Positions 1 through 43,136 of a stretch of 64,000 bases of DNA are shown piece by piece. Positions within the stretch are counted from its first letter, which is position 1, and every line of letters begins with the position of its first letter. The translations under genes and the position numbers were made by a program. The notes beneath the pieces are model-generated. The model saw only the letters and a list, made by a program, of their open reading frames with translations, was not told where the DNA came from and did no database searches. The DNA is from an uncultured Ruminococcus sp. (lineage in GTDB: Bacteria > Bacillota > Clostridia > Oscillospirales > Ruminococcaceae), in the NCBI GenBank assembly GCA_937920725.1, contig CALEUW010000018.1, positions 123,447-187,446 on the forward strand, read 5' to 3'.

Positions 1-571
<571 letters not shown>

Positions 572-585
572 TTAACCTAAAATCA

Positions 586-620
586 GCACAGTCGAGGTTA
601 AGCTTCGGCTGTGTTTTTTT
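586..620 (+). terminator. putative intrinsic terminator after ilvC
   Basis: Imperfect hairpin cacagtcgag...cttcggctgtg followed by a T7 run. Confidence 0.5.
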
Positions 621-713
621 ATTTTCTTATGTTTAAGTTGCTGAAGTTTTAGTCTGATAATGTCGTATTATGTGACGAAAACGTACATTTTATGTGTTAT
701 TTTTTTCATTCCT

Positions 714-743
714 ATTGACATGATAAATGCATATTATGTATAA
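714..743 (+). promoter_or_regulatory. sigma-A-like promoter of the polysaccharide locus (TTGACA-18-TATAAT)
   Basis: ttgacatgataaatgcatattatgtataat lies ~50 nt upstream of the priming-transferase start. Confidence 0.5.
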
Positions 744-794
744 TATTATTCGATAGATAACAATAGCTTGTTTAAAGGGAGGAGTTGCACTTTT

Positions 795-1490
795 ATGGCT
801 GATTTACAAACAGCTTTAATTGAGAGGGTAAGCTCGGTACAAACAAAACCCGAAAGACAGGAAGTACATATAAATAGTTCAAAAGCATATCATTTTGTCA
901 AAAGAGCGTTTGATATAGCATTATCGTTGGTTTCTCTTGTTGTGTTAAGTCCTGTTTTTTTAATAGTATCGGCTGTTATATTTTTGTCTGACTTTCACTC
1001 TCCGATTTTTAAGCAGCAGCGTCTTACAAAGGATTCAAAGTTGTTTAACATGTATAAATTTCGTTCTATGTGCGTTGATGCAGAAGACAGGCTTGCAGAG
1101 TTACAGGAGTTTAATGAGGCAGATGAAGACGGAAAAGCATTTAAGATGACTGATGATCCTAGAATTACTAGAATAGGTAAGTTTTTAAGAAAGACAAGTA
1201 TAGATGAGCTTCCTCAGCTTGTGAATATTTTAAAGGGAAATATGAGCTTCGTAGGGCCTCGTCCTCCGCTTCCGAGGGAAGTTGAAGAATACGACGATTA
1301 TGAACTTCACAGGCTTGATGTAAAATCCGGTCTTACCTGCTATTGGCAATGCTCCGGCAGAAGTAATCTTTCCTTTGATGACTGGGTTGCGCTAGACATA
1401 AAGTACATAAACGAACAATCTTTAAAGACCGACATAATAATATTTTTCAAAACGTTTGGAGCTGTTTTAAAAGGTGACGGAGCGGTATAA
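795..1490 (+). CDS. initiating sugar phosphotransferase (bacterial sugar transferase family, WbaP/CpsE/EpsL-like)
   Basis: One TM helix, then ...KFRSM...DELPQLVNILKGNMSFVGPRPPLPREVEEYD..., typical of undecaprenyl-phosphate hexose-1-P transferases. ATG 795 follows GGGAGG; the ORF track begins at TTG 768. Confidence 0.85.
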   Translation: MADLQTALIERVSSVQTKPERQEVHINSSKAYHFVKRAFDIALSLVSLVVLSPVFLIVSAVIFLSDFHSPIFKQQRLTKDSKLFNMYKFRSMCVDAEDRLAELQEFNEADEDGKAFKMTDDPRITRIGKFLRKTSIDELPQLVNILKGNMSFVGPRPPLPREVEEYDDYELHRLDVKSGLTCYWQCSGRSNLSFDDWVALDIKYINEQSLKTDIIIFFKTFGAVLKGDGAV

Positions 1491-1574
1491 AGATGAAATC
1501 GCATATTTGGTTCGAGCTGTTATTGTTTTCTGATTTGTATTCATTAATATAGTAAGAGTTTTGACGGTGAATTA

Positions 1575-1955
1575 ATGATGTTCTGTAAGACAATTTGCAG
1601 GACTTTGTTTTTTGTAATGGTGATAAATTTGACAAGAAAAGAATTGGTAGATTTTTTTAATACCTTTGAAAATTCAACGGTTGACTGTCCGTTTTCCGGC
1701 GATGATATAAGTTTGGTGGCAAGACACATAAGCAACGGAAAATGGTATGCGCTTGTGATGAAGCTTGATGGCAAGGACATAGTTAATTTGAAATGTGATC
1801 CTTTGCAGTCGCAGTTTTTGAGAGACAATTTTGATGGAATTTACGAAGCGTATCATATGAATAAGGTGCACTGGAACACAGTTGACCTTGAAAGCGATGT
1901 GCCGAGCAATCTTATAAAAGATTTGGTATCTCATAGCTTTGAGCTTACTTTGTAG
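1575..1955 (+). CDS. MmcQ/YjbR-family protein (putative DNA-binding)
   Basis: ...AYHMNKVHWNTV... motif and a size typical of the YjbR/MmcQ family. Confidence 0.55.
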   Translation: MMFCKTICRTLFFVMVINLTRKELVDFFNTFENSTVDCPFSGDDISLVARHISNGKWYALVMKLDGKDIVNLKCDPLQSQFLRDNFDGIYEAYHMNKVHWNTVDLESDVPSNLIKDLVSHSFELTL

Positions 1956-1978
1956 GCTGAAAATAAAAAATGGGATCC

Positions 1979-2011
1979 AGCACCTGCCATAATAAAAGAC
2001 GGTGCTTTTTG
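1979..2011 (+). terminator. intrinsic terminator
   Basis: agcacc...ggtgct hairpin followed by TTTTT. Confidence 0.55.
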
Positions 2012-2101
2012 TATATTATGGTATTTTTGACTTGAAATGTGTCTTAATCTACACACCTTTAGTATGATGTGTAGAAAAAAGAAAAAGCAGTTGTTTTAGC
2101 G

Positions 2102-2130
2102 TTGACATAAACATTTAGTTATGATAAAAT
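2102..2130 (+). promoter_or_regulatory. sigma-A-like promoter (TTGACA-17-TAAAAT) for the fkp-ugd-glycosyltransferase operon
   Basis: ttgacataaacatttagttatgataaaat. An 8-bp palindrome TCTACACA/TGTGTAGA lies upstream at 2048-2075, and a 10-bp-stem hairpin sits in the 5' UTR at 2198-2239. Confidence 0.45.
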
Positions 2131-2258
2131 TTATATAATGTATTCTAGACATAATCGGTAAGTGCAGGTTGGTGAATGCAGGGAAAGAGTAAGTATTAAG
2201 AGCTTTGTCGCATAAACATAAAAGTGCATCAAAGCTCTTAAATAAATAGGAGATTGAT

Positions 2259-5200
2259 ATGGATAAATTTGCACCTTCGTTATTTTTATCTCAATCCTAC
2301 GGGGACGCCTGGCAGGACTATAGAAGAATGTTGACACGTTCGACTTTTGCTTGTTGGGATTATGTCATTTTGACAGCGTCCAATGAGAAGCAAGCAGTGG
2401 GTTTTCGTGCGCAGATTGCCGAGCGTCAGCAAGCAGGCTTTTTACCGTCTAAAACTCATTTTGCAGTTATTCCCGATCCTGAAGGTAAAAGAGTAGGAAG
2501 CGGCGGAGCAACCTTAGGCGTTATTAAGTATATCGCTGAGAGAGAAAAAACTACAGATTTTTCGGATTTGCGGATTCTTGTTATTCACTCCGGCGGAGAC
2601 AGCAAACGTGTTCCGCAGTATTCTGCTTTGGGAAAACTATTTTCTCCTGTGCCTCATGAGCTTCCAAATGGAAGGGTATCGACTCTTTTTGATGAGTTTA
2701 TGATCGGTATGGCTGGCGTTCCGGCTCGAATCAGAGAAGGTATGCTGCTTCTTTCCGGTGATGTTTTGCTGTTGTTTAACCCGTTGCAGATTGATTATTC
2801 CGGCGATGGAGCAGCCGCTGTTTCTTTTAAAGAAAATGTAGAAGTCGGTAAAAATCACGGGGTTTTTCTTCGTGGAGAAAGTGGAAATGTAGTTAGATTT
2901 TTACATAAACAGAGTGCTCAGTCGCTGCGTTCTTACGGAGCTGTCAATGAGCGTGACTGTGTTGATATTGATACAGGTGCGGTTATCTTTTCTTCAAAAA
3001 TGCTTGAAGCTTTGTATGGGCTGATATCCTGTGACGGAAAGCCTGATGAGCTTAGATATAATAAATATGTAAACGAAACTGTAAGATTATCTCTTTATGG
3101 GGACTTTTTGTATCCATTAGCTTCTGATTCTACTTTGGAGGATTTCTATAAGGAAAAACCCGAGGGTGAATATTGTGATGAACTTAGAAATGCCCGTACT
3201 GAAGTTTGGAATGCTTTGCGACCTTTTGGTATGAAGCTTCTTAGACTTGCTCCTGCTAAATTTATACATTTCGGAACAACGAAAGAGATCATGGAATTGA
3301 TGTCTGACAAAATTTCCGAGTATAGTCATCTTGGCTGGAGCAAATGTGTCAACAGCAGTATCGTTCATGAAAATGTGGCAGGCTACAGCAGTGTTCTTTC
3401 AAGTTATGCAGAGTGTGGAAAAAATTGCTATCTTGAGGATAGCTATGTGCATCACGGCGCCGTTGTGGGTGATAATGTCTTACTCTCATATGTTGATATA
3501 CATGATGAAAATATCCCGTCAAACATTGTTTTGCATGGACTGAAACAACAGGACGGACGATTTGTAGTCCGTATATACGGAGTCGAGGATAACCCTAAGG
3601 GGATTTTGGAAGATGGATGCACTTTTTTAGGCAGTCCGTTTTCGGAATTTATAGAGAATAATCAAATCGATATAGATCAGCTGTGGCAGGGTGACAGCAG
3701 TCATTCGTTATGGGAGGCTAAGCTTTATCCGTCATGCGCTACTATTGAAGAAGCACTGGCTGCAGCACTTAACGTTTATGATATGGTTTTGGGAAAAGGT
3801 GATATTAAAGCTTGGGTTGAGTCACAGCGAAAGAGCCTTAAGTCCGGTTTTAATGAAGCGGATCCTAATGCACTTGTTGCGTGGGACAAGCGTATGCAGG
3901 AGCTTGTTCGCATGGACCGATTAGCTAAGCTTATTCACAGCGGCCGTCCTGTCAGTGAAGTAAAAGGCATTTTGCAGACAAATAAGCTTACTCCGATTCA
4001 GGAATCCTGGCTTGAACAACGTTTAGAGCGTGTAGATTACAGCGAAGCAATGCGTTTGCACTATTATGTTGGCTGTTTAATAGGAGATGCTGAAGGCGAG
4101 AAGCATATTGCTGAGAGTTTTAGGTGTATCAGTGAAGCGGTGCTGAAGGGCACTATGGAGAATTTAAAGTTTAATGAAAACTGTCAAATAGTTTCAGATA
4201 AGCATATAGTAAAACTGCCCCTTAGAGTGAACTGGGGCGGAGGTTGGAGCGATACTCCGCCGTACTGTAATGAAAACGGCGGTACGGTACTTAACGCGGC
4301 AATTCTTTTGAACGGAGAGATGCCGGTTGAAGTTACGTTGACAAGACTTGATGAACACAAGATTGTGTTTGACAGCCGTGATATGAATGTTCACGGTGAG
4401 TTTACAGAAATAGAACCGCTGCAAGCTACAGGAGATCCGTATGATCGTTTTGCTTTACAAAAAGCGGCGCTTCTTGCATGCGGTATAATTCCAACGGATG
4501 GAGGCGACTTAGACGAAATTCTGACCAGACTTGGCGGAGGATTTGCCATGCAGACTGAAGTCACAGGAGTTCCAAAAGGCAGCGGCCTTGGGACAAGCAG
4601 TATACTTGCAGCAGCGTGTGTGAAGGCTATATTTGAATTCATGGGAATTGAACATACTGAGGATGATTTATACGGCCATGTGCTTTGCATGGAGCAAATC
4701 ATGTCTACCGGAGGAGGTTGGCAGGATCAGGTCGGCGGTTTGAGCAATGGGATTAAGTACATTACTTCTATGCCGGGATTGAATCAAAGGCTTCGAGTTG
4801 AGCATATAAAAGTGCCTGAAAAGGCAATGGCAGAGCTGAATGAACGCTTTGCGCTGATTTATACAGGTCAGAGAAGGCTAGCGAGAAATCTTCTTCGTGA
4901 TGTTGTTGGCAGATACATTGGTAATGAGTCAGATTCTCTGTATGCTCTCAATGAGATACAGAAAGTTGCTGCATTGATGCGATTTGAACTTGAGCGAGGA
5001 AACATTGCTGCATTTACAGAACTTATGTCACAGCACTGGGAGCTTTCAAAGAAGATAGATTCTGAAAGTACTAATACTCTTATAGATCAGATCTTTTTTT
5101 CCATTGATGATCTTATTGACGGTAAAATGATTTCAGGTGCCGGCGGCGGCGGATTTTTACAGGTAATTCTGAAAAAAGGCGTTACTAAAGATCAGGTTCA

Positions 5201-5264
5201 CAAAAGGCTTAAGAGTGTATTTCAGGATAATGATATTGATGTTTGGGAATGCGAGTTAGTGTAG
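2259..5264 (+). CDS. fkp: bifunctional L-fucokinase / L-fucose-1-phosphate guanylyltransferase (Fkp-like; GDP-L-fucose salvage)
   Basis: The N-terminal region (VILTASNEKQA...LVIHSGGDSKRVPQY...LLLSGDVLLLFN) resembles the fucokinase/GDP-fucose pyrophosphorylase domain. The C-terminus has GHMP-kinase motifs (NWGGGWSDTPPYCNENGG... PKGSGLGTSSILAAA). The ~1000-aa length matches Bacteroides Fkp. Confidence 0.8.
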   Translation: MDKFAPSLFLSQSYGDAWQDYRRMLTRSTFACWDYVILTASNEKQAVGFRAQIAERQQAGFLPSKTHFAVIPDPEGKRVGSGGATLGVIKYIAEREKTTDFSDLRILVIHSGGDSKRVPQYSALGKLFSPVPHELPNGRVSTLFDEFMIGMAGVPARIREGMLLLSGDVLLLFNPLQIDYSGDGAAAVSFKENVEVGKNHGVFLRGESGNVVRFLHKQSAQSLRSYGAVNERDCVDIDTGAVIFSSKMLEALYGLISCDGKPDELRYNKYVNETVRLSLYGDFLYPLASDSTLEDFYKEKPEGEYCDELRNARTEVWNALRPFGMKLLRLAPAKFIHFGTTKEIMELMSDKISEYSHLGWSKCVNSSIVHENVAGYSSVLSSYAECGKNCYLEDSYVHHGAVVGDNVLLSYVDIHDENIPSNIVLHGLKQQDGRFVVRIYGVEDNPKGILEDGCTFLGSPFSEFIENNQIDIDQLWQGDSSHSLWEAKLYPSCATIEEALAAALNVYDMVLGKGDIKAWVESQRKSLKSGFNEADPNALVAWDKRMQELVRMDRLAKLIHSGRPVSEVKGILQTNKLTPIQESWLEQRLERVDYSEAMRLHYYVGCLIGDAEGEKHIAESFRCISEAVLKGTMENLKFNENCQIVSDKHIVKLPLRVNWGGGWSDTPPYCNENGGTVLNAAILLNGEMPVEVTLTRLDEHKIVFDSRDMNVHGEFTEIEPLQATGDPYDRFALQKAALLACGIIPTDGGDLDEILTRLGGGFAMQTEVTGVPKGSGLGTSSILAAACVKAIFEFMGIEHTEDDLYGHVLCMEQIMSTGGGWQDQVGGLSNGIKYITSMPGLNQRLRVEHIKVPEKAMAELNERFALIYTGQRRLARNLLRDVVGRYIGNESDSLYALNEIQKVAALMRFELERGNIAAFTELMSQHWELSKKIDSESTNTLIDQIFFSIDDLIDGKMISGAGGGGFLQVILKKGVTKDQVHKRLKSVFQDNDIDVWECELV

Positions 5265-5295
5265 GAGCTTGTAAGATAGGAGGGAGATATATACC

Positions 5296-6546
5296 ATGAA
5301 AAAAGAATTTAAGATTGCAGTTGCAGGAACAGGATATGTGGGGTTATCTATTGCAACTTTGCTGGCACAGCATCACAAGGTTTTTGCTGTGGATATTATA
5401 CCTGAAAAGGTAGAAATGATTAATAATCGTAAATCTCCGATTCAAGATGAGTATATAGAAAAGTATCTGGCTGAAAAGGAGCTGGATCTGACCGCAACAC
5501 TAGACGCTGAACTCGCTTACAGCAATGCGGATTTTGTTGTAATTGCAGCTCCTACTAATTATGATAGTCATAAAAATTTCTTCGACACGTCTGCGGTTGA
5601 GGCTGTGATCAAACTGGTCATGGAACATAACCCAAATGCAATTATGGTTATTAAGTCTACCATTCCTGTCGGATATACGAAAAGCATCCGCGAAAAGACG
5701 GGCAGCAAGAACATCATCTTCAGTCCTGAGTTTTTAAGAGAATCAAAAGCGCTTTATGATAATTTGTATCCAAGCAGAATTATTGTCGGTACTGATATGA
5801 GCGATAAAAGGCTTGTTGAAGCTGCACACACTTTTGCAGAGTTTCTACAGGAAGGCGCAATCAAAGAAGATATCGATACTCTCTTTATGGGATTTACTGA
5901 AGCAGAGGCAGTGAAGTTGTTTGCGAATACATATTTAGCACTTCGTGTAAGTTATTTCAACGAGTTGGATACATATGCTGAAATGAAAGGGTTGAATACT
6001 CAGCAGATTATTGATGGTGTTTGTCTTGATCCAAGAATCGGTTCACATTACAATAATCCTAGTTTTGGTTACGGTGGATACTGTCTGCCAAAAGACACCA
6101 AGCAGCTTCTGGCCAACTATGAGGATGTGCCGGAGAACCTGATTGAAGCTATCGTGGAGAGCAACAGAACTCGTAAGGACTTTATTGCCGATCGTGTGCT
6201 GAAAATGGCCGGGTATTACGGATACGAGGAAGATAATTTATATAGCAAGAATAAAGAAAAGCTGATTACGATTGGTGTTTATAGGCTGACAATGAAGAGT
6301 AACTCTGATAACTTCCGTCAGAGCAGTATCCAGGGCGTCATGAAGCGCATTAAAGCGAAAGGTGCAACTGTTGTGATTTATGAGCCTACGTTGGAAAATG
6401 GCAGCACTTTTTTCGGAAGTGTAGTTGTTAATAATCTTGATGAGTTCAAGAAAATGACAGATGCGATCATTGCGAACCGTTATGACAAGTGCCTTGATGA
6501 TGTGAAAGACAAGATTTATACTAGGGATATTTTTATGAGGGATTGA
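5296..6546 (+). CDS. ugd: UDP-glucose 6-dehydrogenase
   Basis: [18 protein letters not shown]... [24 protein letters not shown]... [10 protein letters not shown]; near-colinear with streptococcal HasB. RBS AGGAGGGA. Confidence 0.9.
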
Positions 6547-6550
6547 TTTA

Positions 6551-7351
6551 ATGAGAAATGACATTAATTTAAAAAAAATTGATAATGTAAAGGTAATTGA
6601 CTTTATTGGTATACGATTAAATAATATGTCTTCAGAAGAAATATTGAATCATGTTGATTACTGCGTAGAAAGAAAAATTCCTTGTCAGATTGTTGGAATC
6701 AATGTGGACCAAGCTGTTAGGGTTTTAGAAGATAAAAAGTCATATAAAATATTTCAGGATGCGGAGCTTGTATTTACGGATGGACAACCTATTGTATGGA
6801 TGGCCAAGAAAATGAAGCGCCCTATCGTTGAAAAGGTTTCTGGACCTGATTTGATGCTTAAACTGTGTGAGAGAGCAGCCCAAAAGCAGTATAAAGTATT
6901 TATACTTGGTGCAGGACCTAATGTTGCAAAACAGGCAGCAATTAATTTACAAAAAATGTATCCGAATTTTCAGTGTGTTGGAACATATTCGCCTCCATTT
7001 GGATTTGAAAAGGATCCGCAAGAGATGAAAAAGATTATAACGATGTTAAAGGAGTCTGGTGCGGACGAGCTTTTTGTTGGTATGGGATCTCCGAAACAGG
7101 ATGTTTTTATATACGAAAACATGAATGAATATGGAATAGCAGTTTCATTTTCTATGGGAGCAGCGATTGATTTTATAGCAGGAAACGTTAAGAGAGCGCC
7201 CAAATGGATGAGTGATCATGGATTGGAATGGTTTCATCGATTTCTGCAAAATCCCAAGCGTTTGTACAGACGTTATTTTATAGATGACCGAAAAATACTT
7301 AAATACTATAGAGAGTTTGTTAAGAAAGAAAAAGCAGCGGGAAGGCTGTAA
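6551..7351 (+). CDS. WecB/TagA/CpsF-family glycosyltransferase
   Basis: Conserved ...VFTDGQPIVWMAKK...GVGMGSPKQDVFI...HGLEWFHRFLQNPKRLYRRY... Confidence 0.8.
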   Translation: MRNDINLKKIDNVKVIDFIGIRLNNMSSEEILNHVDYCVERKIPCQIVGINVDQAVRVLEDKKSYKIFQDAELVFTDGQPIVWMAKKMKRPIVEKVSGPDLMLKLCERAAQKQYKVFILGAGPNVAKQAAINLQKMYPNFQCVGTYSPPFGFEKDPQEMKKIITMLKESGADELFVGMGSPKQDVFIYENMNEYGIAVSFSMGAAIDFIAGNVKRAPKWMSDHGLEWFHRFLQNPKRLYRRYFIDDRKILKYYREFVKKEKAAGRL

Positions 7352-7365
7352 TCGGGTAAATAGAA

Positions 7366-8462
7366 TGATGAGAGTATTAGTGATTGAAACGACTGTCTTT
7401 GGGTATGATGGAATTTCAAATGTTGTTTTAAACTATTATAAATATCAGAACCATGAAAAAGTATGGATGGATTTGTTAACGATTAATCCGGTAAATGATA
7501 CTTTGAAAAAATTGCTGAATCAAAATAAAAATCAAAACTTCGTTTTACCATGTCGAAATCGTAATCCGTTTAAATATGTAAGACAACTTGTGAAAATCAT
7601 ACGGGAAGGGGAATACGATATTATTCATGTGCATGGATGTAGCGCCACAATGGCTGTTGAGATGTTGGCAGGAAAGTTAGCTGGAGTAGATGTTAGAATT
7701 GCTCATAGTCATAGCACGAAATGCAATCATATGTGGATTAATAGATTTTTGAGAATCTTTTTTAAGCGATGGTGTAATTACGGTTTTGCATGTGGTGAAG
7801 AAGCAGGAAAATGGTTATTTCCTAAAAAAGAGTTTTGCGTGATTCCTAATGGTATTGATTTGGAGAAGTTCAGATATGATGAGGCAATGAGAAACTTATT
7901 CAGGAAAAAAAATAATTTGGATGGAAAGTTTGTCGTTGGTCATATTGGAAGGTTTAGTATGGCGAAAAACCATGAGAAGTTAGTTGATATTTTTGCAAAA
8001 ATCAGCAAACGTGTACCGAACAGTATTCTGGTTTTAATTGGAGACGGAGAACTAAGAGAACAAATTGAAAATAAAGTTAAGACTCTTAATTTAAATGTAT
8101 TATTTGTTGGATTAAGCAGCCAAGTAGAAAAATGGCTTCAGGCTATGGATGTAATGGTTTTCCCGTCTATATTTGAAGGATTGCCGCTTAGTCTTGTAGA
8201 AGCACAGGCTACAGCGTTACCGTGTATGCTGAGTGATTCCATCTCTCCGATGACTAAAATCACAGATCCTGTTCGGTTTGAAAGCTTAGATGCAACTGCG
8301 GAAACGTGGGCTGATGATACTATCTCATTAGTGAAATCGTTTGATAGAAATAAATACAGTAGTGAGGTAAAGGATATGATTAGAAAGGCTCACTATGATA
8401 TAAGAGAGAATTGTGCCGAGCTAGTAAGTCAATACGAAAGAATGGTGAGTGAAAGTAAATGA
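7366..8462 (+). CDS. glycosyltransferase family 4 (GT-B, EX7E motif)
   Basis: ...FPSIFEGLPLSLVEAQATALPCMLSD... The track ORF starts at 7284 and overlaps the upstream gene. ATG 7366 (MMRVLVIE) is the first start after the upstream stop. Confidence 0.8.
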
Positions 8463-9664
8463 AGTATTTAATTTTAGGTGCTGGTCCTGCAGGATTGGCA
8501 TTTGCAAATAAGTTAAAGGAAAAAGGCGAAACTTCATTTTTAGTACTGGAAAAGGAAAAAGAGGCTGGCGGTCTTTGCAGATCAGCCAAAGTAGATGGAT
8601 CCCCTTTTGATATAGGCGGCGGTCATTTTTTAGATGTGAGAAGACCAAATGTAAATGAATTTCTCTTTCAATTCATGCCGGAAGCAGAGTGGAATAAATA
8701 TGATAGGGACAGTCGAATTAAAGTAAATGATAATTTGATCAGCCATCCTATAGAAGCGAATATTTGGCAGATGAAAATTGAGGATCAGGTAGAATATTTG
8801 AAGTCGATTGCAACGGCTGGTTGTAACTTAAAAACTGAGATGCCTAAGGAATTTGTCGCTTGGATTTATTGGAAACTTGGTGATAAAGTAGCAGATGATT
8901 ATATGATACCGTATAACCAAAAGATGTTTGGCGATGAGTTAGATGAGTTAGGAACATATTGGCTTGACAAACTTCCGAATGTTAGTTTTGAGGAAACGTT
9001 ACTGTCATGCTTAACTAAACGTGCATATGGAAAACAACCCGGACATGCTCAATTTTATTATCCAAAAAATTATGGATACGGAGAAGTTTGGCTGCGGATG
9101 GCAGATGCCATTAAAAACAATATTGCATATGAAAAAGATGTTATGCAAATTGATTTTACAGATAATTCAGTTACTGTTTTAGATGGTACGAAATACAAAT
9201 CAGAAGTCATTATTACAACGATTCCGTGGGCAGAGTTTAACAGTATTAAAGGCATGCCAAAAGAAATAAAGGATACTATTAAAGAATTAAAGCATAGCTC
9301 AGTGCAAACTGAGTATTTTCAGGAAAATTTGGATACAAAAGCACATTGGATTTATTATCCGGAAGCTGAGTTGCCATATCACAGAATCTTAGTTCGACAT
9401 AACTTTTGTCCGGGTAGCCGTGGATATTGGACTGAAACAAATTCAAATAGGATATCTATTGACTCTGTTAATGGTAATTTTAAGTATATGAATCAGTATG
9501 CATATCCGTTAAATACCGTAAATAAACCTGAGGTAATGAAAAACCTATTAAGTTGGTGTGAGGAGCATCAGGTATATGGTCTTGGGCGTTGGGGAGAACA
9601 TCAGCATTATAATTCCGATGTAACAGTAGACTTGGCTATGAGGTTAGCAGATCGTTTATCTTAA
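8459..9664 (+). CDS. FAD-dependent oxidoreductase, UDP-galactopyranose mutase (Glf)-like
   Basis: N-terminal Rossmann motif LILGAGPAGLAFA...LEKEKEAGG. The C-terminus (YAYPLNTVNKPEVMKN...GLGRWGEHQHYNSDVTVDLAMRLA) parallels the Glf tail (YYPVN...GRLAEYKYYDM...). Confidence 0.5.
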   Translation: MKYLILGAGPAGLAFANKLKEKGETSFLVLEKEKEAGGLCRSAKVDGSPFDIGGGHFLDVRRPNVNEFLFQFMPEAEWNKYDRDSRIKVNDNLISHPIEANIWQMKIEDQVEYLKSIATAGCNLKTEMPKEFVAWIYWKLGDKVADDYMIPYNQKMFGDELDELGTYWLDKLPNVSFEETLLSCLTKRAYGKQPGHAQFYYPKNYGYGEVWLRMADAIKNNIAYEKDVMQIDFTDNSVTVLDGTKYKSEVIITTIPWAEFNSIKGMPKEIKDTIKELKHSSVQTEYFQENLDTKAHWIYYPEAELPYHRILVRHNFCPGSRGYWTETNSNRISIDSVNGNFKYMNQYAYPLNTVNKPEVMKNLLSWCEEHQVYGLGRWGEHQHYNSDVTVDLAMRLADRLS

Positions 9665-9675
9665 TGGAGGATTAT

Positions 9676-10449
9676 ATGAAAAAATTTTCTGTTATTACAA
9701 TTTCGTATAATGCCGGAGAAGCAGTTAGAAAGACTGTGGATTCTGTATTAAGACAAGATTTGACAGATATTGAATACTTGTTCATAGATGGTGCCTCTAC
9801 AGACAACACTAAGGAAATCATTGTGGATTGTATAGAAAAATTGGAGAATAGGGGAATCAGTGTTAAATTTATATCTGAACCGGACAAAGGAATTTCGGAT
9901 GCATTTAATAAAGGAATTTTGTGTGCAGAAGGAGAAATTATTGTAATTTTAAATGCAGCTGATACCATGATGGAAGGTACACTGCAAAAAGTACAGCACG
10001 AATTTGATCAAGGGATAGATGTATTATACGGAAATGTACTTTTCTGTGATGAGAAAAGGAATCTTAATTGGATTAGAAAATCTCAAAGCGAGAAGGCGTT
10101 AGGAAAACTTAAATATTCGATGGTACTACAGCACCCGGCAACATATATAAGAAAGAGTGCATATAAGGAATATGGTCTGTATGATATTTCATACAGGTAT
10201 TGCATGGATGAAGAATTATTATATAGATTTTTTATTTCCGGTGCCAAATTTAAATATATGGATTATACATGTACCTGTATGCAGGCAGGTGGCGTTAGTG
10301 ACGATCAGGTATGGAAGGTTCTTAAAGAAGGGACGAGAATCCCGCTCATGTATGGCGATCACGCTATAAAGGTTAATATAATCGTTATATTTAAATTTGT
10401 AAGACATCAAATGGCACATTTGTACAGACGTCTGTTCAGAAGGAGATAA
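9676..10449 (+). CDS. glycosyltransferase family 2
   Basis: FSVITISYNAGEAVRKTVDSVLRQ...FIDGASTDNT. GGAGG lies 5 nt upstream of ATG 9676. Alternative start ATG 9664 overlaps the upstream stop (TAATG). Confidence 0.8.
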   Translation: MKKFSVITISYNAGEAVRKTVDSVLRQDLTDIEYLFIDGASTDNTKEIIVDCIEKLENRGISVKFISEPDKGISDAFNKGILCAEGEIIVILNAADTMMEGTLQKVQHEFDQGIDVLYGNVLFCDEKRNLNWIRKSQSEKALGKLKYSMVLQHPATYIRKSAYKEYGLYDISYRYCMDEELLYRFFISGAKFKYMDYTCTCMQAGGVSDDQVWKVLKEGTRIPLMYGDHAIKVNIIVIFKFVRHQMAHLYRRLFRRR

Positions 10450-10450
10450 A

Positions 10451-11656
10451 ATGAAATATGGAATAGTTGCAATCGGTTATAATCGACTGAAGGGACTGGA
10501 AAGACTTCTCAATCAGTTAAACTGTTGCTTTTACGATGAACCAATTGACCTAATAATAAGTCTTGACTGTAGTGAAAATAATAAACTTCATGATTTTGTT
10601 TATTCGTTTAGATGGCCGTATGGTGAAAAAAAAGTAATTATTCATTCGCATAGGTTAGGCTTAAAGGAGCATGTTTTATCCTGTGGTGATTTGCTTAATA
10701 AGTATAGTTTGGATGCAATTGCAGTATTTGAAGATGATGTTTTTCCAGGATATGAGTTTTTTCGGTTTATGAAGCAAGCGGTTGAGTATTATAAAGATGA
10801 TGATAATATTGCCGGAATATCTTTATATCAACATAGAATTTGTGCTAGTGCTCAACTTCCGTTTACACCGCAAAACAGCGAATATGATGTCTACTTTATG
10901 AAGATAGCACAGTCTTGGGGACAGGTATGGACAAAAAAACAATGGATCAGTTTTAAAAGTTGGTATGATGTGAATTCTGCTTTGTGGAACAGCAGTGATT
11001 ATGTTCCGGATAATGTTGCACAGTGGCCCAAGTCTTCTTGGCTTAAATATTATTGGAGGTATTGCGGAGAAACAAACAAATATTTTGTATATCCATATCA
11101 GGCGCTGGTAACATGTTTTGCCGAGGCAGGAGAACATACCATTCGTTCCTCATCTATGTTGCAGGTACCTTTAGTAACCTCGTGGGAAAGAGAATATCAT
11201 TTTGCAGATTTGGATTCGGAAAAAGCAGTAAGATATGATGCCTTTTGGGAAAATGAGGCAGCAGCAGTTTGGTGTGCAAAGAGATGTGCAATTAGTAAAG
11301 ATGATATTTCAATTGATATATACGGAGCTAATAGAAACAGAATGCATAAAAGATATTGGCTTACGCAGAGAAAGGAAAATTATAAAATCATTGCTTCTTA
11401 TGCATTAGAATTAAGGCCTCATGAAATGAATGTATTATTAGGTGTTGAAGGAAATGACATATTGCTATATGACACACAGCAATATGTCAATAATGCACAT
11501 AGCAAGAAATTACGCTATGTGGATTTTATAGAATATTATTTGACGCATATGTTTGGGAAAAAAACAATAAACAAGTTAGTAACAAGTTCATATGTACGTT
11601 CTGTTCAAGATAGAATTAAGACTATTATTTTCAAAATGAGAAAGCGAGGGAGATAA
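10451..11656 (+). CDS. putative glycosyltransferase (GT-A-like, DxD motif)
   Basis: GIVAIGYNRLKGLERLLNQL... and FEDDVFP (DxD-like). RBS AAGGAG. Confidence 0.45.
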   Translation: MKYGIVAIGYNRLKGLERLLNQLNCCFYDEPIDLIISLDCSENNKLHDFVYSFRWPYGEKKVIIHSHRLGLKEHVLSCGDLLNKYSLDAIAVFEDDVFPGYEFFRFMKQAVEYYKDDDNIAGISLYQHRICASAQLPFTPQNSEYDVYFMKIAQSWGQVWTKKQWISFKSWYDVNSALWNSSDYVPDNVAQWPKSSWLKYYWRYCGETNKYFVYPYQALVTCFAEAGEHTIRSSSMLQVPLVTSWEREYHFADLDSEKAVRYDAFWENEAAAVWCAKRCAISKDDISIDIYGANRNRMHKRYWLTQRKENYKIIASYALELRPHEMNVLLGVEGNDILLYDTQQYVNNAHSKKLRYVDFIEYYLTHMFGKKTINKLVTSSYVRSVQDRIKTIIFKMRKRGR

Positions 11657-12520
11657 ATGTCACTTGTCAGCAGAAAATTCAAGTGGTATAGGAATAAAGC
11701 GGTTACTTTGTTTTATCAATTGTATTCCCCTAAGTCAGGCACAATAAGTTCAAATAATACTCCCAGAATTATCGTTACAATGACAAGTTTTACAAAAAGG
11801 TTGGATACACTCTACCTTTGCGTAAAAAGTCTTCTGAATCAAAAAAGAAAACCGGATAAGGTGATTTTATATTTGGGGAAAGATGTTGCGGATAAGATAA
11901 TTCCGGATAATTTGCGAAAATTGGAGAAATTCGGATTAGAAATAAAGACGGGATATGATGATATTAAACCCCATAAAAAATACTATTATGCAATGCAGGA
12001 GTATCCGGAAGACATAATTATTACGGTGGATGATGATGTTATATATCATCGAGATCTTGTTTATGGGCTTATGGAAGCACATCAGTATCATCCGGATGCA
12101 GTCATTTGCAGGCGAGCAAGGAAAGTCCTATATGATGACGAAGGACATCTTCTACCATATAATAGTTGGCCGAAAATAGATAATAATGAAGGACCGGCAT
12201 TTGATATATTGCCGACAGGAGTAGGAGGAGTTTTATATCCGCCGCATTGTCTGCATGAAGATGTGTTTGATAAAGACACTCTGACAGATATTTGCTTAAA
12301 AGCAGATGACATATGGCTTAAATATATGGAAGTGCGAAAGGGAACAAAAGTAGTATTTACGAGGGCTAAGCATGGTGATCCGGGGATAATTCCAAAAACA
12401 TTTTCTTCGGGCTTGTATAACGAAAATGTAAATGAAAACCAAAATGATTTGTATCTGAAAAAAATGTGTGAAAGGTATCATATTGATATTACCGGAAAAG
12501 TGATAAATCAAAGTCCATAA
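11657..12520 (+). CDS. putative capsule/EPS glycosyltransferase (SFxKR...LLNQ...KPDK-type)
   Basis: ...RIIVTMTSFTKRLDTLYLCVKSLLNQKRKPDKVILYL...ITVDDDVIY..., a pattern seen in capsular polysaccharide synthesis proteins. Confidence 0.4.
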   Translation: MSLVSRKFKWYRNKAVTLFYQLYSPKSGTISSNNTPRIIVTMTSFTKRLDTLYLCVKSLLNQKRKPDKVILYLGKDVADKIIPDNLRKLEKFGLEIKTGYDDIKPHKKYYYAMQEYPEDIIITVDDDVIYHRDLVYGLMEAHQYHPDAVICRRARKVLYDDEGHLLPYNSWPKIDNNEGPAFDILPTGVGGVLYPPHCLHEDVFDKDTLTDICLKADDIWLKYMEVRKGTKVVFTRAKHGDPGIIPKTFSSGLYNENVNENQNDLYLKKMCERYHIDITGKVINQSP

Positions 12521-12574
12521 GAGCAATAAAATATTCATTCTTCTATAATTAAATTTTATATAAGGGATGTAAAA

Positions 12575-13159
12575 ATGAATATAAAAAGAATAATATTAAA
12601 AATAAAAAGATTTCCTTCAAAATTAGTTAATAGAGTCATACTGAAAATCAGAAGAATTCAATACGGTGCAAATTTTGTCGCCTACGGTACACTTTTTATT
12701 AGAGGTACAGGTAAGATTTTGATAGGAGATAATGTGACTATCATATCCTGCCGTGAAACAAATCCTATAGGCGGTGACACAAAAACCATTTTACATGCAC
12801 ATGAAAATGGTTTGATTTCTATTGGAAATAATGCTGGCATGTCTAACGTGACAATAGTTTCACGAAATTTAGTTACTATTGAGGATGATGTATTTATTGG
12901 TGGAAGCTGTAAAATATACGATAATGATTTTCATCCATTAAACTACGAACAGCGTATTTCTACCCCTAATGACAGTATTGCTTCAAAGCCTATCACAATT
13001 AAAAGGGGAGCTTTTATAGGTGCACATTCTATTATTTTGAAGGGTGTCACGATTGGAGAGAAGAGTATTATCGGTGCAGGCTCAGTTGTAACAAAGTCCG
13101 TTCCGGATGGCGAAATTTGGGGAGGAAACCCAGCCAGATTTATCAAAAAAATAAATTAA
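12575..13159 (+). CDS. hexapeptide-repeat O-acetyltransferase (maltose/galactoside acetyltransferase-like)
   Basis: Left-handed beta-helix repeats: ...[15 protein letters not shown]...[43 protein letters not shown]. Confidence 0.8.
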
Positions 13160-13184
13160 TTACTCTATAAGTGAGGAAAGAAGT

Positions 13185-13826
13185 ATGCTAGTTAAAAAGG
13201 GACGATTTGCACGGTATGATAAAAAGTGTCAATTTGAAGGAAATAATTATATCGGTAAGCTTGGATGTGCTAAAGAGAGTTTTTTCGGGAGATTTTCTTA
13301 CATAGGTGATTACAGTTATGCAAACAAAATGCATATAGGACGATTTACCAGCATAGCTTCCAGATTGGATATTATTGCGGGGGAGCATCCGTCAAGGGAT
13401 TTTGTTTCAACTAATCCAGCTTTTTTCAAACTGGATATTTTTTTGGGAAAATCTTTTGTATATAAACGAAAGTGTAGTGATTACAAATTTGTCATCGTTG
13501 ATGGGAAAGAGTATTTTTGTTCCGTTGGAAATGATGTATGGATTGGATCAAATGTGAAAATATTGAATGGGGTAAAGATAGGAGACGGTGCAATTATTGC
13601 TGCGGGTGCAGTTGTTGTTAAAGATGTACCATCGTATGCAGTAGTCGGGGGCGTACCGGCAAAAATTATTCGTTTTCGTTTTTCAGAAGATCAGATAGCT
13701 TTTTTAGAGAAATTAAAATGGTGGGAAAAGGATGACCAATGGCTCGAAAGTCATGCGGATAAATTTGAAAATATAGAGGAATTGATGAAGACAGTGACCA
13801 AGGAAGAAGAACTGGCTAAAGATTAG
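13185..13826 (+). CDS. hexapeptide-repeat acetyltransferase (xenobiotic/CatB-Vat-like)
   Basis: ...[49 protein letters not shown]...LKWWE... Confidence 0.75.
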
Positions 13827-13835
13827 GAGCGGCTC

Positions 13836-14918
13836 GTGTTGAATAAGAATGTAAATATGAAAACAGGAATATTAACATTTCATAATGCAAATAATTATGG
13901 AGCAGTTTTGCAGGCATATGCACTGCAGGAAGCTGTTAAAAAAATTTGTCCGGAAGTATCAATTATTGATTATCGATGTAGGGCAATTGAAATGAGATAC
14001 TTTCCGCCAAACCTGCATGAAGGATCGCTGAAACATAGGCTGAGAAGATGTGTTGAATATGGATTTCAAAAAATAAAGTATAAAAAATTTGATATATTCC
14101 GTAAAAACTTTTTTAATTTGGATAAGAAAGAGTTATTGGATAATGATTACTATGACATAATTATCGTTGGCAGTGATCAGGTTTGGAATTATAAATTAAC
14201 AGATTGTGATTGGACGTTCTTCTTAAAGCCTGTAATAAATTCGGTTCAAAAATGTGCATACGCACCAAGTTTTGGACTTTCTAATATTGAACCTATATTA
14301 GAAGAAGAGATTGCGTCTTGTCTTAATAATTTTAAACAGTTGTCCGTACGAGAGGAAACGGGAAGGACCCTTATCAGCAGATTAACTGGGAAAGATGTGC
14401 CGGTTGTAGTAGATCCTACATTATTGTTATCTAAGACTGAATGGATTACAAAAATGCAAATCAAAAAGAAAAGAGAAGAATACATTTTGGTTTATTTGTT
14501 TGGTGTGATTAAAGAAGCAACGGACTATATACACTGGCTGTCAGAGAAAACAAAATTGCCGATAATCGTTATTGACAGCTCATTAAAAAAGGTTATAAAA
14601 GGCAAATATGTCCGTTTTGCTTCACCGAAGAAATGGGTGGAATTATTTGCAAATGCTAAATATGTAGTTACTAATTCCTTTCACGGGCTGATGTTTTCAA
14701 TTATATTTGAAAAAGAGTTTTATATAGCGCCTCTTCAAAAAGAAGTAAAAACAGGTTCAAGAATAGATGACAGTTTGGAGCGTTTAGGTTTGGAGAACAG
14801 AAAGATCAATGGATTCATGATAAAAGAGGATATTGATTATGAAAAGGTGCACGAGCGATTGGAGGAGATGATAAGTCATTCTATGACGTATTTATTGAAT
14901 TCAATGGAGGAAATATAG
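13836..14918 (+). CDS. polysaccharide pyruvyl transferase family protein
   Basis: MKTGILTFHNANNYGAVLQAYALQ...IIIVGSDQVWN... GTG start 13836 sits 6 nt after AGGAG; ATG 13857 is an alternative. Confidence 0.8.
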   Translation: MLNKNVNMKTGILTFHNANNYGAVLQAYALQEAVKKICPEVSIIDYRCRAIEMRYFPPNLHEGSLKHRLRRCVEYGFQKIKYKKFDIFRKNFFNLDKKELLDNDYYDIIIVGSDQVWNYKLTDCDWTFFLKPVINSVQKCAYAPSFGLSNIEPILEEEIASCLNNFKQLSVREETGRTLISRLTGKDVPVVVDPTLLLSKTEWITKMQIKKKREEYILVYLFGVIKEATDYIHWLSEKTKLPIIVIDSSLKKVIKGKYVRFASPKKWVELFANAKYVVTNSFHGLMFSIIFEKEFYIAPLQKEVKTGSRIDDSLERLGLENRKINGFMIKEDIDYEKVHERLEEMISHSMTYLLNSMEEI

Positions 14919-14921
14919 CGT

Positions 14922-16145
14922 ATGTGGAATATTCGTATAAAAAAACACGAGATTATTTTATACATAATTTTAGCTCTTTCTGTTTTAGATATTATACCTG
15001 TTTCTTTTGGAAATTCCTTGCGATACAAACTTATGTTATGTTTGGGACTTGTTCTTTACCTTTATTGCGCAACCGTTGCTTTTAGACGCAGCACGCCGGT
15101 TATAATAAAGGTCGCATATGTAGTGTGTGTCATCAATGCGTTTTCAATTTTAAGTTCGGCAGATAACATATATAATTACATCTATATGTTAATGGAGGCC
15201 GTTCTCTGGATGTTGGTTATGATTGCGGTCTATGGATTGGTAGCAAAATGCAGTAAGCCGCAGGAAATGGGAAGTAATATATATTATTGTATAGGAATTA
15301 TATTTTTGATATGCGGTTTATTGTGTTTTAGACCTAGCCTTATGTCATCTTACAGAGAATGGGTAAGTATGCTATATAAACTGTATTATCCGCTTTGCTT
15401 GCTGCCACTGGTATTGATTACGAAAAAAAGATTTTATCTCTTTAATGGCTATGTTAAATACTCCAAAGTATTCGTAATTTTAATAGTGGGAGTACTGATT
15501 CTGTTGTCATCAAAAAGAGGGGGATTTATCGCCCTTGTTTGTGGAATTGCAATATATTATAGCATAATTATATCTATCACTCCGCAGAGAAGTAAAAGAC
15601 TGACTTATATCAGAAATGTCACAATGATTTTTGCATTGGCGTTAATTGTTTTGATTGTGCTTGAACAGTCCGGAGAATTTGAGATTTTCAATCGTTTGTC
15701 AAGTATTGGCTGGAATGCTGAAGGAACTTCAGGCAGAACTGAGATTTGGAAAGAGTTATTATCTGTATATGATAATGGAACTATAATTCAAAAGTTATTT
15801 GGATTTGGACATAATGCAACGTATAATTATACTACAATTTCTGTTGCCGGTCATAATGATTATATTAACAATTTATTTAATTATGGACTGATTTCTGTTT
15901 CGTTACAGATCGTTATTATTCTTGGCTTGATATTTCGTTGTTTTCGGATGGTAAAAATGAAGAACACAATGGCTCCTGCATTTGGGTGTTCGTTGGCGAT
16001 CTTTTTTGTACTTTCCATGGTTAGTATTTGCATTTCAACATCTGAAATCAGTTTGTATCTGGGATATATCTGGGGACTGGTTTTAGGAAATTCTAACAAA
16101 GAACAGGAGCAGTTGACAGGTCAAAAAAATATTTTGTTAGTTTAA
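14922..16145 (+). CDS. Wzy-like polysaccharide polymerase (O-antigen ligase domain membrane protein)
   Basis: About 10 predicted TM segments with a large loop, typical of Wzy. No strong sequence motifs. Confidence 0.5.
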   Translation: MWNIRIKKHEIILYIILALSVLDIIPVSFGNSLRYKLMLCLGLVLYLYCATVAFRRSTPVIIKVAYVVCVINAFSILSSADNIYNYIYMLMEAVLWMLVMIAVYGLVAKCSKPQEMGSNIYYCIGIIFLICGLLCFRPSLMSSYREWVSMLYKLYYPLCLLPLVLITKKRFYLFNGYVKYSKVFVILIVGVLILLSSKRGGFIALVCGIAIYYSIIISITPQRSKRLTYIRNVTMIFALALIVLIVLEQSGEFEIFNRLSSIGWNAEGTSGRTEIWKELLSVYDNGTIIQKLFGFGHNATYNYTTISVAGHNDYINNLFNYGLISVSLQIVIILGLIFRCFRMVKMKNTMAPAFGCSLAIFFVLSMVSICISTSEISLYLGYIWGLVLGNSNKEQEQLTGQKNILLV

Positions 16146-16171
16146 ATACGGACAGTGAGGACACAGATGTT

Positions 16172-17677: not shown

Positions 17678-17693
17678 TATACAGGGGCAGATC

Positions 17694-18917: not shown

Positions 18918-19008
18918 TCAAAAGACAAGTTCAAGATTATTGTGCTGATTAAAGTTATTAAGAAAAAACAAAAAACATATGATCAATTATAGCAATGGAG
19001 GTAGCACT

Positions 19009-20019
19009 ATGGAAGAGAAATTTGTTCGCTTTTCCGGATTTGATATATTAAAATTCTTATGTGCATTCTTGGTTGTATGCATTCACTGCCCGTTTCCGGG
19101 AATTGTTGGTCAGTATTTCACAGCATTGGCTAGAATTGCTGTTCCTATTTTTTTTATGATTACGGGATTTTTTTATTTGGACATAGTAAATAAACACAGG
19201 CAAGGACAACAGATTAAGAAAATTTTCATATATTTTGCATTAGCAAACTTTTTTTATTTGGTATGGAAATTACTTTTAGCGGTGGTTTCCGGCACGGGAA
19301 TTTCTGCTTGGTTTGTTCAAACTTTTTCTGTAAAAAATATTATAAATTTTATAGTTTTTAACGAGTCACCGTTTAATGGCCATCTCTGGTATTTGGGAGC
19401 GCTTCTGTATGTACTTTTGATTATGGTAGTTGTTTACAGATCTAGATTAAATAAAATCTTTTGTGCGATTACGCCGCTTTTGTTACTGGGTGATCTCATT
19501 TTCGGAAAATATTCTTTATTTGTATTACACAGAGAGTTCCCGTATATTGTTGTTAGAAATTTCTTTTTTGTTGGACTGCCGTACTTTTGCATTGGTATGA
19601 TGCTCCGAAAATACAAAGGTATCGTTAAAACCAAGACTTTTCTTTTGCTTTCAATTTTATTTTCGTTGACTACGTTATTGGAAAGATATTTATTAGTCAG
19701 TGCAGATTTAAATGCAACAAGGGATCAGTATATCAGTACTACGTTATTATCAATTACGGTGTTTATGTTTTTCAGGGAATTTTATCAGAAACGCAGTTTG
19801 TCAAAAGTCGAACAAGTATTTGCAAAGGTAGGACGTGAGTATTCTGTATGGGTTTATATCATACACCCTGTTTTCATTACAATATTGTCGGTTCTAATGG
19901 GTAAATGCGGACTATATAATGCATATCAATTTATAGCGCCAATTATTGTATATTTCGTGAGTATTGTGTTTGTGTCAGTAATGTGTATAATTATAAAAAA
20001 GATTAAGCAGGCAGTATGA
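19009..20019 (+). CDS. acyltransferase family 3 membrane O-acyltransferase
   Basis: ...FSGFDILKFLCAFLVVCIHCPFP...RIAVPIFFMITGFFY... GGAGG lies 7 nt upstream of ATG 19009. Confidence 0.8.
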   Translation: MEEKFVRFSGFDILKFLCAFLVVCIHCPFPGIVGQYFTALARIAVPIFFMITGFFYLDIVNKHRQGQQIKKIFIYFALANFFYLVWKLLLAVVSGTGISAWFVQTFSVKNIINFIVFNESPFNGHLWYLGALLYVLLIMVVVYRSRLNKIFCAITPLLLLGDLIFGKYSLFVLHREFPYIVVRNFFFVGLPYFCIGMMLRKYKGIVKTKTFLLLSILFSLTTLLERYLLVSADLNATRDQYISTTLLSITVFMFFREFYQKRSLSKVEQVFAKVGREYSVWVYIIHPVFITILSVLMGKCGLYNAYQFIAPIIVYFVSIVFVSVMCIIIKKIKQAV

Positions 20020-21174: not shown

Positions 21175-21188
21175 AAGTGAGTGTTTGT

Positions 21189-21618: not shown

Positions 21619-21639
21619 AAAACTTAAGAGGATTTCAAA

Positions 21640-43134: not shown

Positions 43135-43136
43135 AT

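Follow-up and report, generated by a model that had tools for sequence, protein, structure and literature searches.

Bacteroides builds salvaged fucose into its surface glycans, a textbook trait of colonisation. For the bifunctional fucokinase/GDP-fucose pyrophosphorylase of Bacteroides fragilis (BfFKP), the functional residues were set by crystallography and mutagenesis (Lin et al. 2025, PMC11982464). The kinase uses Asp762 as general base and cannot do without Arg592 and Glu751; Trp599 packs against the C4-C5-C6 face of fucose, O3 and O4 are held by Asp601, Thr602 and Gln761, and phosphate is bound by Gly717 and Ala900 (PMC11982464). In the pyrophosphorylase, Asp31 reads guanine, Lys187 is the catalytic lysine and the GTP site comprises Gly38, Ser39, His73, Gly75, Gly76, Ser78, Arg79, Arg80, Lys89 and Asp136; the beta anomer of fucose is the substrate (PMC11982464). 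A phylogeny divides FKP proteins into three clades, Clade A being of plants and bacteria and Clade B of Bacteroidota, with the bacterial 'Cluster one' of Clade A also holding the plant FKGP (Smith et al. 2025, PMC12732313). Bacillota, Firmicutes, Clostridia and Lachnospiraceae occur neither in the text nor in the supplement of that work. Here, we describe a gene of this family, fkp, in a stretch of 64,000 nucleotides (the window) from an uncultured Ruminococcus sp. (contig CALEUW010000018.1, positions 123,447 to 187,446). We consider it about 70% probable that fkp encodes a functional, native FKP of a clostridial clade and heads a transcript that would supply GDP-fucose to a Wzy-type acidic glycan encoded downstream.

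The gene and the two domains of its product lie as follows.

2259..5264, plus strand: Fkp, predicted bifunctional L-fucokinase/GDP-L-fucose pyrophosphorylase of the FKP family, clostridial clade, 1001 aa
2451..3740, plus strand: predicted GDP-fucose pyrophosphorylase (fucose-1-phosphate guanylyltransferase) domain, aa ~65-494, PF07959
4212..5204, plus strand: predicted GHMP-type L-fucokinase domain, aa ~652-982

The open reading frame (ORF) runs uninterrupted for 1001 codons from ATG to stop, exactly at 2259..5264. As 13 independent contigs, from metagenomes or genomes in JGI, ENA, Logan and NCBI assemblies, code for exactly this protein of 1001 aa, fkp is a real and intact gene. A Pfam search identified Fucose_pyrophosphorylase (PF07959) at aa 101-494 (E 1.2e-91, 308 bits against a cut-off of 34 bits) and GHMP_kinases_N (PF00288) at aa 760-825. 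An earlier note, made from the letters of the window alone, had read the protein as an N-terminal fucose-1-phosphate guanylyltransferase joined to a C-terminal GHMP kinase, and both domains were indeed found. PF07959 is the only significant nucleotidyltransferase-type Pfam match in Fkp, the sole other N-terminal match, LbH_EIF2B, lying far under its cut-off, and the N-terminal domain does not come from another nucleotidyltransferase family. The top NCBIfam model is NF009948, bifunctional fucokinase/fucose-1-phosphate guanylyltransferase, which spans aa 63-982; the C-terminal third also matches HddA-type sugar kinases (aa 652-982). Fkp thus shows the architecture of the FKP family, with an N-terminal pyrophosphorylase and a C-terminal GHMP kinase in one polypeptide of ~950-1050 aa. 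When Fkp was compared with the sequences of the Protein Data Bank by phmmer, aa 65-978 aligned with B. fragilis FKP (9iit_A, E 2.3e-68; 5yys_A, E 2.1e-68). Because the sequence matches solved FKP structures over their full length, the fold can be regarded as settled. The predicted activity is most likely the conversion of free fucose to GDP-fucose.

The earlier note had called the enzyme Bacteroides-type and unusual for a Clostridia-like organism, and neither description holds. Identity to BfFKP is ~32% in the best-aligned blocks, and the score of 459.5 bits on NF009948 (PRK13412) does not reach the curated equivalog cut-off of 721, so the label Bacteroides-type should not be given to Fkp. Among 5.8 billion clustered proteins, at least 4977 proved to be related to Fkp (E below 1e-10). 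The top 120 of these are all ~1000 aa long and at least 70% identical to Fkp; they are already annotated as 'bifunctional fucokinase/L-fucose-1-P-guanylyltransferase', and where a source gives a name, as it does for a few, this is Lachnospiraceae, Oscillospiraceae, Eubacteriales, Clostridiales or Clostridia. A pattern was also scanned against genomes that each represent one GTDB species; this gave 120 stretches with Fkp relatives, 80 of which were kept (49-75% identity). The source species itself is missing from that scan, the top match there being 75% identical. The titles of the 80 name Lachnospiraceae, Oscillospiraceae, Acutalibacteraceae, Faecousia, Christensenellaceae, Ruminococcus and others, and all refer to taxa of the class Clostridia except for a single 'Bacteroidaceae', a single 'Firmicutes' and three records titled just 'bacterium'. 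Anaerosacchariphilus hominis NSJ-68, Lachnoclostridium sp. An131 and Laedolimicola intestinihominis CLA-AA-H132 are cultured isolates, with Fkp homologues 53-54% identical to the window protein. With thousands of relatives, and with nearly all titles from the genome scan naming Clostridia, this enzyme type is a common and already annotated feature of gut Clostridia. On sequence grounds, Fkp can be placed in a known enzyme family as an uncharacterised member; its clade is clostridial and separate from the Bacteroides enzymes. The contig titled 'Bacteroidaceae bacterium' (L047, CAVBJS010000076.1) encodes a clostridial-type Fkp 61% identical to the window protein; it is either a mis-binned contig or a genuine transfer from Clostridia to Bacteroidota.

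To compare the active sites, 22 catalytic or ligand-binding positions of BfFKP were mapped onto Fkp via the HMMER alignment. The corresponding residues of Fkp are the following.

Pyrophosphorylase catalytic and GTP-site residues: D73, G80, S81, H110, G112, G113, S115, K116, R117, K126, D168, K217
Kinase key residues: R656, W663, D665, T666, G778, E812, G820, Q822, D823, A961

Identity was found at 21 of the 22 positions, all fucose contacts included. The single change is Arg79 of BfFKP to Lys116 of Fkp, a position at which GTP is contacted by the backbone N only. A MAFFT alignment of 194 clostridial homologues, reaching down to 51% identity, showed one and the same residue in every covering sequence at 21 of the 22 positions; at position 116, 190 sequences have K and 4 have R. 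The catalytic (R592, E751, D762) and fucose-binding residues (W599, D601, T602, G759, Q761) of the BfFKP kinase are all identical in Fkp and invariant in the clade. Overall, 141 of the 1001 Fkp positions are invariant in this alignment. At the third, non-catalytic nucleotide site of BfFKP (K300, N311 and N493), K300 and N311 would correspond to I368 and S378, by hand reading of a poorly aligned segment, and may thus not be conserved.

These residues are consistent with the following reaction course. The C-terminal GHMP kinase would phosphorylate beta-L-fucose at O1 with ATP as donor, D823 serving as general base, R656 together with Mg2+ stabilising ADP, and W663, D665, T666 and Q822 holding the sugar. 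The N-terminal domain would then condense fucose-1-phosphate with GTP to GDP-L-fucose, with K217 as catalytic lysine and D73 reading guanine. A different sugar might be activated instead, for example D-arabinose or L-galactose, as in Leishmania AFKP80 or in the side activities of BfFKP, and the polymer would then not be fucosylated. The promiscuity of FKP towards D-arabinose is documented (PMC12732313), and the score below the equivalog cut-off and the low identity to BfFKP leave room for such a shift. It is made improbable by the BfFKP contacts to O2, O3, O4 and the C4-C5-C6 face of fucose (D762, D601, T602, Q761, W599), which are identical in Fkp and invariant in the clade; moreover, FucU genes adjoin close homologues of fkp and a GT11 gene lies near one of them.

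The genomic context indicates that Fkp is native to its lineage. Two sister species, one represented by L087 and the other by L088 and L089, encode Fkp proteins that are 88% (L087) and 86% (L088/L089) identical to the window protein. The left flank is kept in the sister species in the order DUF1287, ilvB, ilvN, ilvC, priming transferase or its remnant, YjbR and Fkp, with SpoIIP at the start of the conserved flank in L087. By blastn, positions 1..5265 of the window are colinear with L087 (81% identity) and positions 1619..5265 with L088/L089 (80% identity). In both sister species colinearity ends at the Fkp stop codon, window position 5265. The G+C content of fkp is 42.7%, within the range of trpB, RNase J, DnaB and FtsH in the window (41.7-42.8%), whereas the genes from WecG through Acyl_transf_3 have only 32-36%. 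Fkp is the last conserved gene of a block formed by ilvBNC, the priming transferase, YjbR and Fkp, and it borders a hypervariable glycan cassette of low G+C content.

The earlier note had also suggested horizontal acquisition. A recent import of a Bacteroides-type fkp together with the polysaccharide locus would fit the frequent horizontal exchange of such loci, the atypically low G+C content of the glycosyltransferase part and the Bacteroidaceae label of L047. It is nevertheless contradicted by the position of Fkp as last conserved gene before the variable cassette: the gene lies inside the conserved syntenic flank, with the YjbR-Fkp order kept in the sister species, and outside the cassette. 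Its G+C content is housekeeping-like, its closest relatives are all clostridial, and the distance to BfFKP in identity and model score is large. We consider this origin highly improbable. If anything was exchanged, it was the cassette behind Fkp rather than Fkp.

Downstream of Fkp, the sister species carry quite different genes. L087 is without Ugd and has a WecG (73% identical), an FAD protein (75%) and a diverged GT4 and GT2 (43% each), followed further downstream by LicD, a choline-kinase/NTP-transferase protein and an IspD-like protein. In L088/L089, the priming transferase is another one, TagD-like and TagF-like genes are present, and a protein of 658 aa combines a GHMP kinase with an NTP_transferase domain. 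This second bifunctional kinase/nucleotidyltransferase (L088 9968..11944, L089 8366..10342) is encoded two genes after Fkp and has no assigned sugar specificity. An exact stop of colinearity at the Fkp stop codon, with LicD, choline-kinase and IspD types without Ugd on one side and TagD/TagF-like genes on the other, is what would be expected if Fkp were a general GDP-fucose supplier for several glycans or glycoproteins, as in Bacteroides, with no specific tie to the downstream polysaccharide. The transcription signals around the gene bear on this alternative.

715..744, plus strand: promoter-like site TTGACA-18-TATAAT upstream of the priming transferase, 12/12 match to the sigma-70 consensus (a consensus match only)
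2102..2130, plus strand: promoter-like site TTGACA-17-(TG)TAAAAT with extended TG, ~130 nt upstream of the Fkp ATG
2198..2239, plus strand: 10-bp perfect hairpin, AAGAGCTTTG...CAAAGCTCTT, in the putative 5' untranslated region, ending 8 nt before the AGGAG ribosome-binding site
22622..22655, no strand: 14-bp hairpin between the convergent RmlB and trpA genes, at the right-hand end of the locus

When the three species were aligned, GCGTTGACA...TGATAAAAT and the ribosome-binding site stood out as conserved blocks in the otherwise diverged YjbR-Fkp spacer. The stem ends of the hairpin at 2198..2239 are conserved and its loop is variable in L087/L088. The 126-nt Fkp leader has a minimum free energy of -28.9 kcal/mol (z -3.4 against shuffled controls), and an Rfam scan of positions 1..24000 at E up to 0.1 gave no riboswitch or leader match upstream of Fkp. 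The hairpin could be an mRNA-stabilising or regulatory element. The gap between Fkp and ugd measures 31 bp, and because no terminator-like site lies inside it, fkp is likely co-transcribed with ugd and the glycosyltransferase genes. In the proposed mechanism, fkp would start its own transcript from the conserved promoter at 2102..2130, running on into ugd and the glycosyltransferase genes. This short gap and the promoter-like site directly upstream of Fkp speak for co-transcription and against a purely general role, as do the many related loci in which Fkp homologues sit among glycosyltransferase and Wzx genes. Non-glycan neighbours of Fkp in many other Clostridia (AraC regulators, MFS transporters or FucU alone) are again more in line with a general supplier. 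Taken together, we regard a role without a tie to this polysaccharide as unlikely, though less so than the activation of another sugar. It is compatible with the supply of the downstream glycan, as a fixed gene at the head could supply any variable cassette that lies behind it.

The genes of the glycan locus other than fkp are as follows.

795..1490, plus strand: priming enzyme, short-form polyprenyl-phosphate hexose-1-phosphate transferase (Bac_transf, PF02397, E 1.9e-64)
1617..1955 (longest ORF from 1575), plus strand: small protein of the YjbR/MmcQ family (PF04237, E 3e-21)
5296..6546, plus strand: UDP-glucose 6-dehydrogenase (Ugd), three UDPG_MGDP_dh Pfam domains
6551..7351, plus strand: WecG/TagA/CpsF (GT26) glycosyltransferase (PF03808, E 3.5e-60; TIGR00696 passes)
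7380..8462, plus strand: GT4 glycosyltransferase (start according to public gene calls)
8459..9664, plus strand: FAD/NAD-binding amine-oxidase-like protein, role unassigned, distantly UDP-galactopyranose-mutase-like
9676..10449, plus strand: short GT2 glycosyltransferase, best NCBIfam match WcaE (73.5 bits against a cut-off of 369)
10451..11656, plus strand: 401-aa soluble protein, unassigned, no family named
11657..12520, plus strand: second GT2 glycosyltransferase
12575..13159 and 13185..13826, plus strand: two hexapeptide-repeat acetyltransferases
13836..14918, plus strand: polysaccharide pyruvyl transferase
14922..16145, plus strand: Wzy-like polymerase (PF04932 Wzy_C, E 2.7e-8; 11 transmembrane-like segments)
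16172..17677 (11 transmembrane-like segments) and 17637..18917 (9 transmembrane-like segments), plus strand: polytopic membrane proteins, flippase candidates
18979..20019, plus strand: Acyl_transf_3 O-acyltransferase
20194..21174, plus strand: FrhB/FdhB-like protein (like the coenzyme F420 hydrogenase beta subunit)
21640..22623, plus strand: dTDP-glucose 4,6-dehydratase (RmlB), last gene of the locus (TIGR01181, 482 bits against a cut-off of 365)

A priming transferase, a GT26, a GT4, two GT2 enzymes and a Wzy in one co-oriented cluster identify a locus of the Wzy type. The longest ORF of the priming transferase starts at 768 (TTG), the public gene calls at 795; the protein resembles TIGR03025, EpsZ and WbaP, all under the NCBIfam cut-offs. 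Fkp had been described in the earlier note as the first gene after the priming transferase, followed by Ugd and glycosyltransferases. The transferase does lie upstream, and Ugd at 5296..6546 is indeed followed by GT26, GT4 and GT2 genes; what had been missed is that the priming transferase and Fkp are set apart by the YjbR ORF and by an intergenic region of 303 bp that carries a promoter-like site of its own. The YjbR protein is 80-87% identical in L087-L089 and adjoins Fkp there. For Ugd, NF011631 is by far the best model (562 bits, under its cut-off of 757), and TIGR03026 passes.

In the reading that we favor, the locus would bring together UDP-glucuronic acid and GDP-fucose, the latter made from free fucose, as precursors of an acidic heteropolysaccharide that is acetylated, pyruvylated and colanic-acid-like in composition. 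The domain architecture, the homology, the conserved residues, the synteny and the taxonomic distribution are shown by the data; enzyme activity, co-transcription, fucose in the polymer, the source of this fucose and a glycosyltransferase that uses GDP-fucose are what we infer here. Gmd and Fcl were not found within the window, to which this search was confined, and a few related loci have a true Gmd directly beside Fkp (see below); salvage in place of de novo synthesis, as proposed in the earlier note, is a possibility only. The short GT2 at 9676..10449, for which WcaE is the top NCBIfam model, is a candidate fucosyltransferase. During colanic acid synthesis, fucose is added at steps 2 and 3, and wcaI and wcaE take part in these early steps (PMC12075129). 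By this analogy, the GT2 is only a lead, with the GT4 at 7380..8462 as alternative. Short GT2 proteins of the same type were found within 2 kb of Fkp in 19 related loci, and all 21 of them (those of the 19 loci, the window copy and a more distant copy in L087) match the NCBIfam model WcaE, which also has the best E-value of all models over the set as a whole.

Several points weigh against the reading that we favor. The WcaE scores of all 21 short GT2 proteins lie far under the cut-off, and no recognised fucosyltransferase and no fucose transporter was found in the window. When FucU proteins and the GT11 protein of L009 (see below) were compared with the whole window by tblastn, nothing significant was obtained, so the window has neither a mutarotase nor a GT11 gene. 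Given a score of 459.5 against 721 bits on NF009948, curators would not transfer the exact function automatically, and in the literature searched, no experimental work on a clostridial FKP turned up; what was found were reviews on the enzyme of Bacteroides and a table of EC numbers from metagenomics. Because D-arabinose and L-galactose are likewise accepted by enzymes of the BfFKP type (PMC12732313), the sequence alone does not settle which sugar is used. Furthermore, synteny breaks directly after Fkp and the downstream genes of the sister species are quite different, so Fkp may serve the cell generally and not this polymer.

Fucose and glycan signals beside Fkp recur in other Clostridia. For a census of neighbours, ORFs were called in the 80 related loci and the genes flanking Fkp were scanned against Pfam; as ORF calling was crude (ATG starts only, greedy non-overlap), the counts are approximate. 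The gene directly downstream of the Fkp homologue encodes an RbsD/FucU mutarotase in 11 of 70 cases (best E 1e-44); in 14 of the 70 it encodes a GT4, and in 3 a true Gmd. Directly upstream, a GT2 was found in 9 of 67 cases and a Wzx-type flippase in 6 of 67. FucU interconverts the anomers of fucose, and GT11 is the family of alpha-1,2-fucosyltransferases. L009, which has a 73% identical Fkp, encodes in sequence Wzx, a protein of the GT11 family, a GalK-like kinase, an NTP transferase, Fkp and FucU; L021 carries a homologue of this GT11 protein. Ugd adjoins Fkp or lies near it in at least eight related loci, among them L036 with the order Fkp, FucU, Ugd and a Ugd 82% identical to that of the window. 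This recurrence of Fkp beside FucU, glycosyltransferase genes and Ugd suggests, as far as gene order can tell, that free fucose is widely used anabolically in gut Clostridia. A further, compact module was seen in cultured Lachnospiraceae, in L056 (6499..17754, Anaerosacchariphilus hominis NSJ-68) and likewise in L063, where YfhO, an unassigned protein, Fkp, GT4, GT2, GT2 and a DUF6056 membrane protein follow one another; it points to wall-polymer glycosylation.

Some further proteins of the locus deserve comment. The FAD protein at 8459..9664 reaches 48 bits against UDP-galactopyranose mutase (cut-off 304) and may be a sugar mutase or an oxidase; its homologue in L087 is 75% identical, and one of 71% identity directly adjoins Fkp in L042. 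The membrane proteins at 16172..17677 and 17637..18917 have no Pfam or NCBIfam match, Polysacc_synt and the MOP-family Wzx included. Weak homologues of the former adjoin Fkp in L007, L027 and L036. The two proteins are probably a divergent flippase or polymerase-type component. Homologues of the FrhB/FdhB-like protein (33-37% identity) lie within 10 kb of Fkp in L009, L013, L021, L022 and L081. For the short-chain dehydrogenase at 21640..22623, Gmd and GalE were considered and rejected in favor of RmlB, the gmd model giving 69 bits against a cut-off of 415. It is set off from the preceding gene by a gap of 465 bp, and none of rmlA, rmlC and rmlD turned up among the window genes scanned. RmlB hints at a second 6-deoxy-hexose in the polymer or at a shared dTDP-sugar pathway encoded elsewhere.

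Beyond the locus, the following genes were noted in the window.

22682..~37125, minus strand: long run of ORFs starting with trpA and trpB
within 22682..~37125 (minus strand) and 38701..61405: RNase J, GdpP-like c-di-AMP phosphodiesterase, DnaB, TilS, FtsH
50982..53249: SpoIIE
53620..55641: GlgB-like branching enzyme
58089..59546: GlgA-like starch or glycogen synthase
59690..61405: 571-aa protein with fibronectin type III repeats

With SpoIIE at 50982..53249 in the window and SpoIIP on the same contig, the host, a gut member of the Clostridia, is probably of a sporulating lineage.

As a single-gene annotation, Fkp is what public pipelines already call, and since the enzyme type is common and native this is an ordinary case. 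What goes beyond routine annotation is the position of Fkp as an anchor at the edge of a hypervariable cassette and its recurrence beside FucU, glycosyltransferases and Ugd in gut Clostridia. We tentatively propose, at somewhat less than even odds, that clostridial Fkp in this genus is an anchor that marks a recombination boundary and that, in gut Clostridia at large, it feeds salvaged host or dietary fucose into capsules or wall glycans. If so, the surface decoration with host fucose known from Bacteroides would extend to a second dominant gut phylum. Were the enzyme active as predicted, many Clostridia would compete for free fucose anabolically as well as catabolically, the surface glycans of largely uncultured Clostridia would be open to probing with alkynyl or azido fucose, and the clade would offer new biocatalysts for GDP-fucose synthesis.

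Among known systems, the FKP of Thermophagus xiamenensis (TxFKP, PMC12732313) belongs, like the window protein, to the bifunctional FKP family. TxFKP was taken as an authentic FKP before assay on the basis of conserved predicted substrate-binding residues (PMC12732313), and these are likewise conserved in the window protein. TxFKP is 51% identical to BfFKP and falls into Clade B (Smith et al. 2025, PMC12732313), whereas the window protein is much more distant from BfFKP.

With the colanic acid (wca) locus of Escherichia coli, the window locus shares a priming hexose-1-phosphate transferase, a GDP-fucose supply, Ugd, a GT4, a WcaE-like GT2, two hexapeptide acetyltransferases, a pyruvyl transferase and Wzy. 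Unlike in colanic acid synthesis, GDP-fucose would come from salvage by Fkp and not from ManB/ManC/Gmd/WcaG, and the window locus also has GT26, FAD-protein, FrhB-like and RmlB genes. None of its proteins reaches a Wca equivalog cut-off (WcaE 73.5 against 369 bits, WcaF 34 against 326 bits), and no match to WcaI was found among them with NCBIfam. The likeness is only a functional analogy, not membership.

The closest structural counterpart is the FKP of B. fragilis (5YYS, 9IIT, 9IIP), with which Fkp shares an N-terminal pyrophosphorylase with beta-helix, a helical linker and a C-terminal GHMP fucokinase, together with the residues that contact fucose, GTP and phosphate and those of catalysis (one change, R79 to K116). 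The clostridial protein differs by an N-terminal extension of ~42 aa, residue 65 aligning with residue 23 of the B. fragilis enzyme. In Bacteroides, the fkp gene is located outside the capsule loci, whereas the clostridial gene appears to head a glycan operon. Both enzymes come from gut bacteria whose surface glycans vary.

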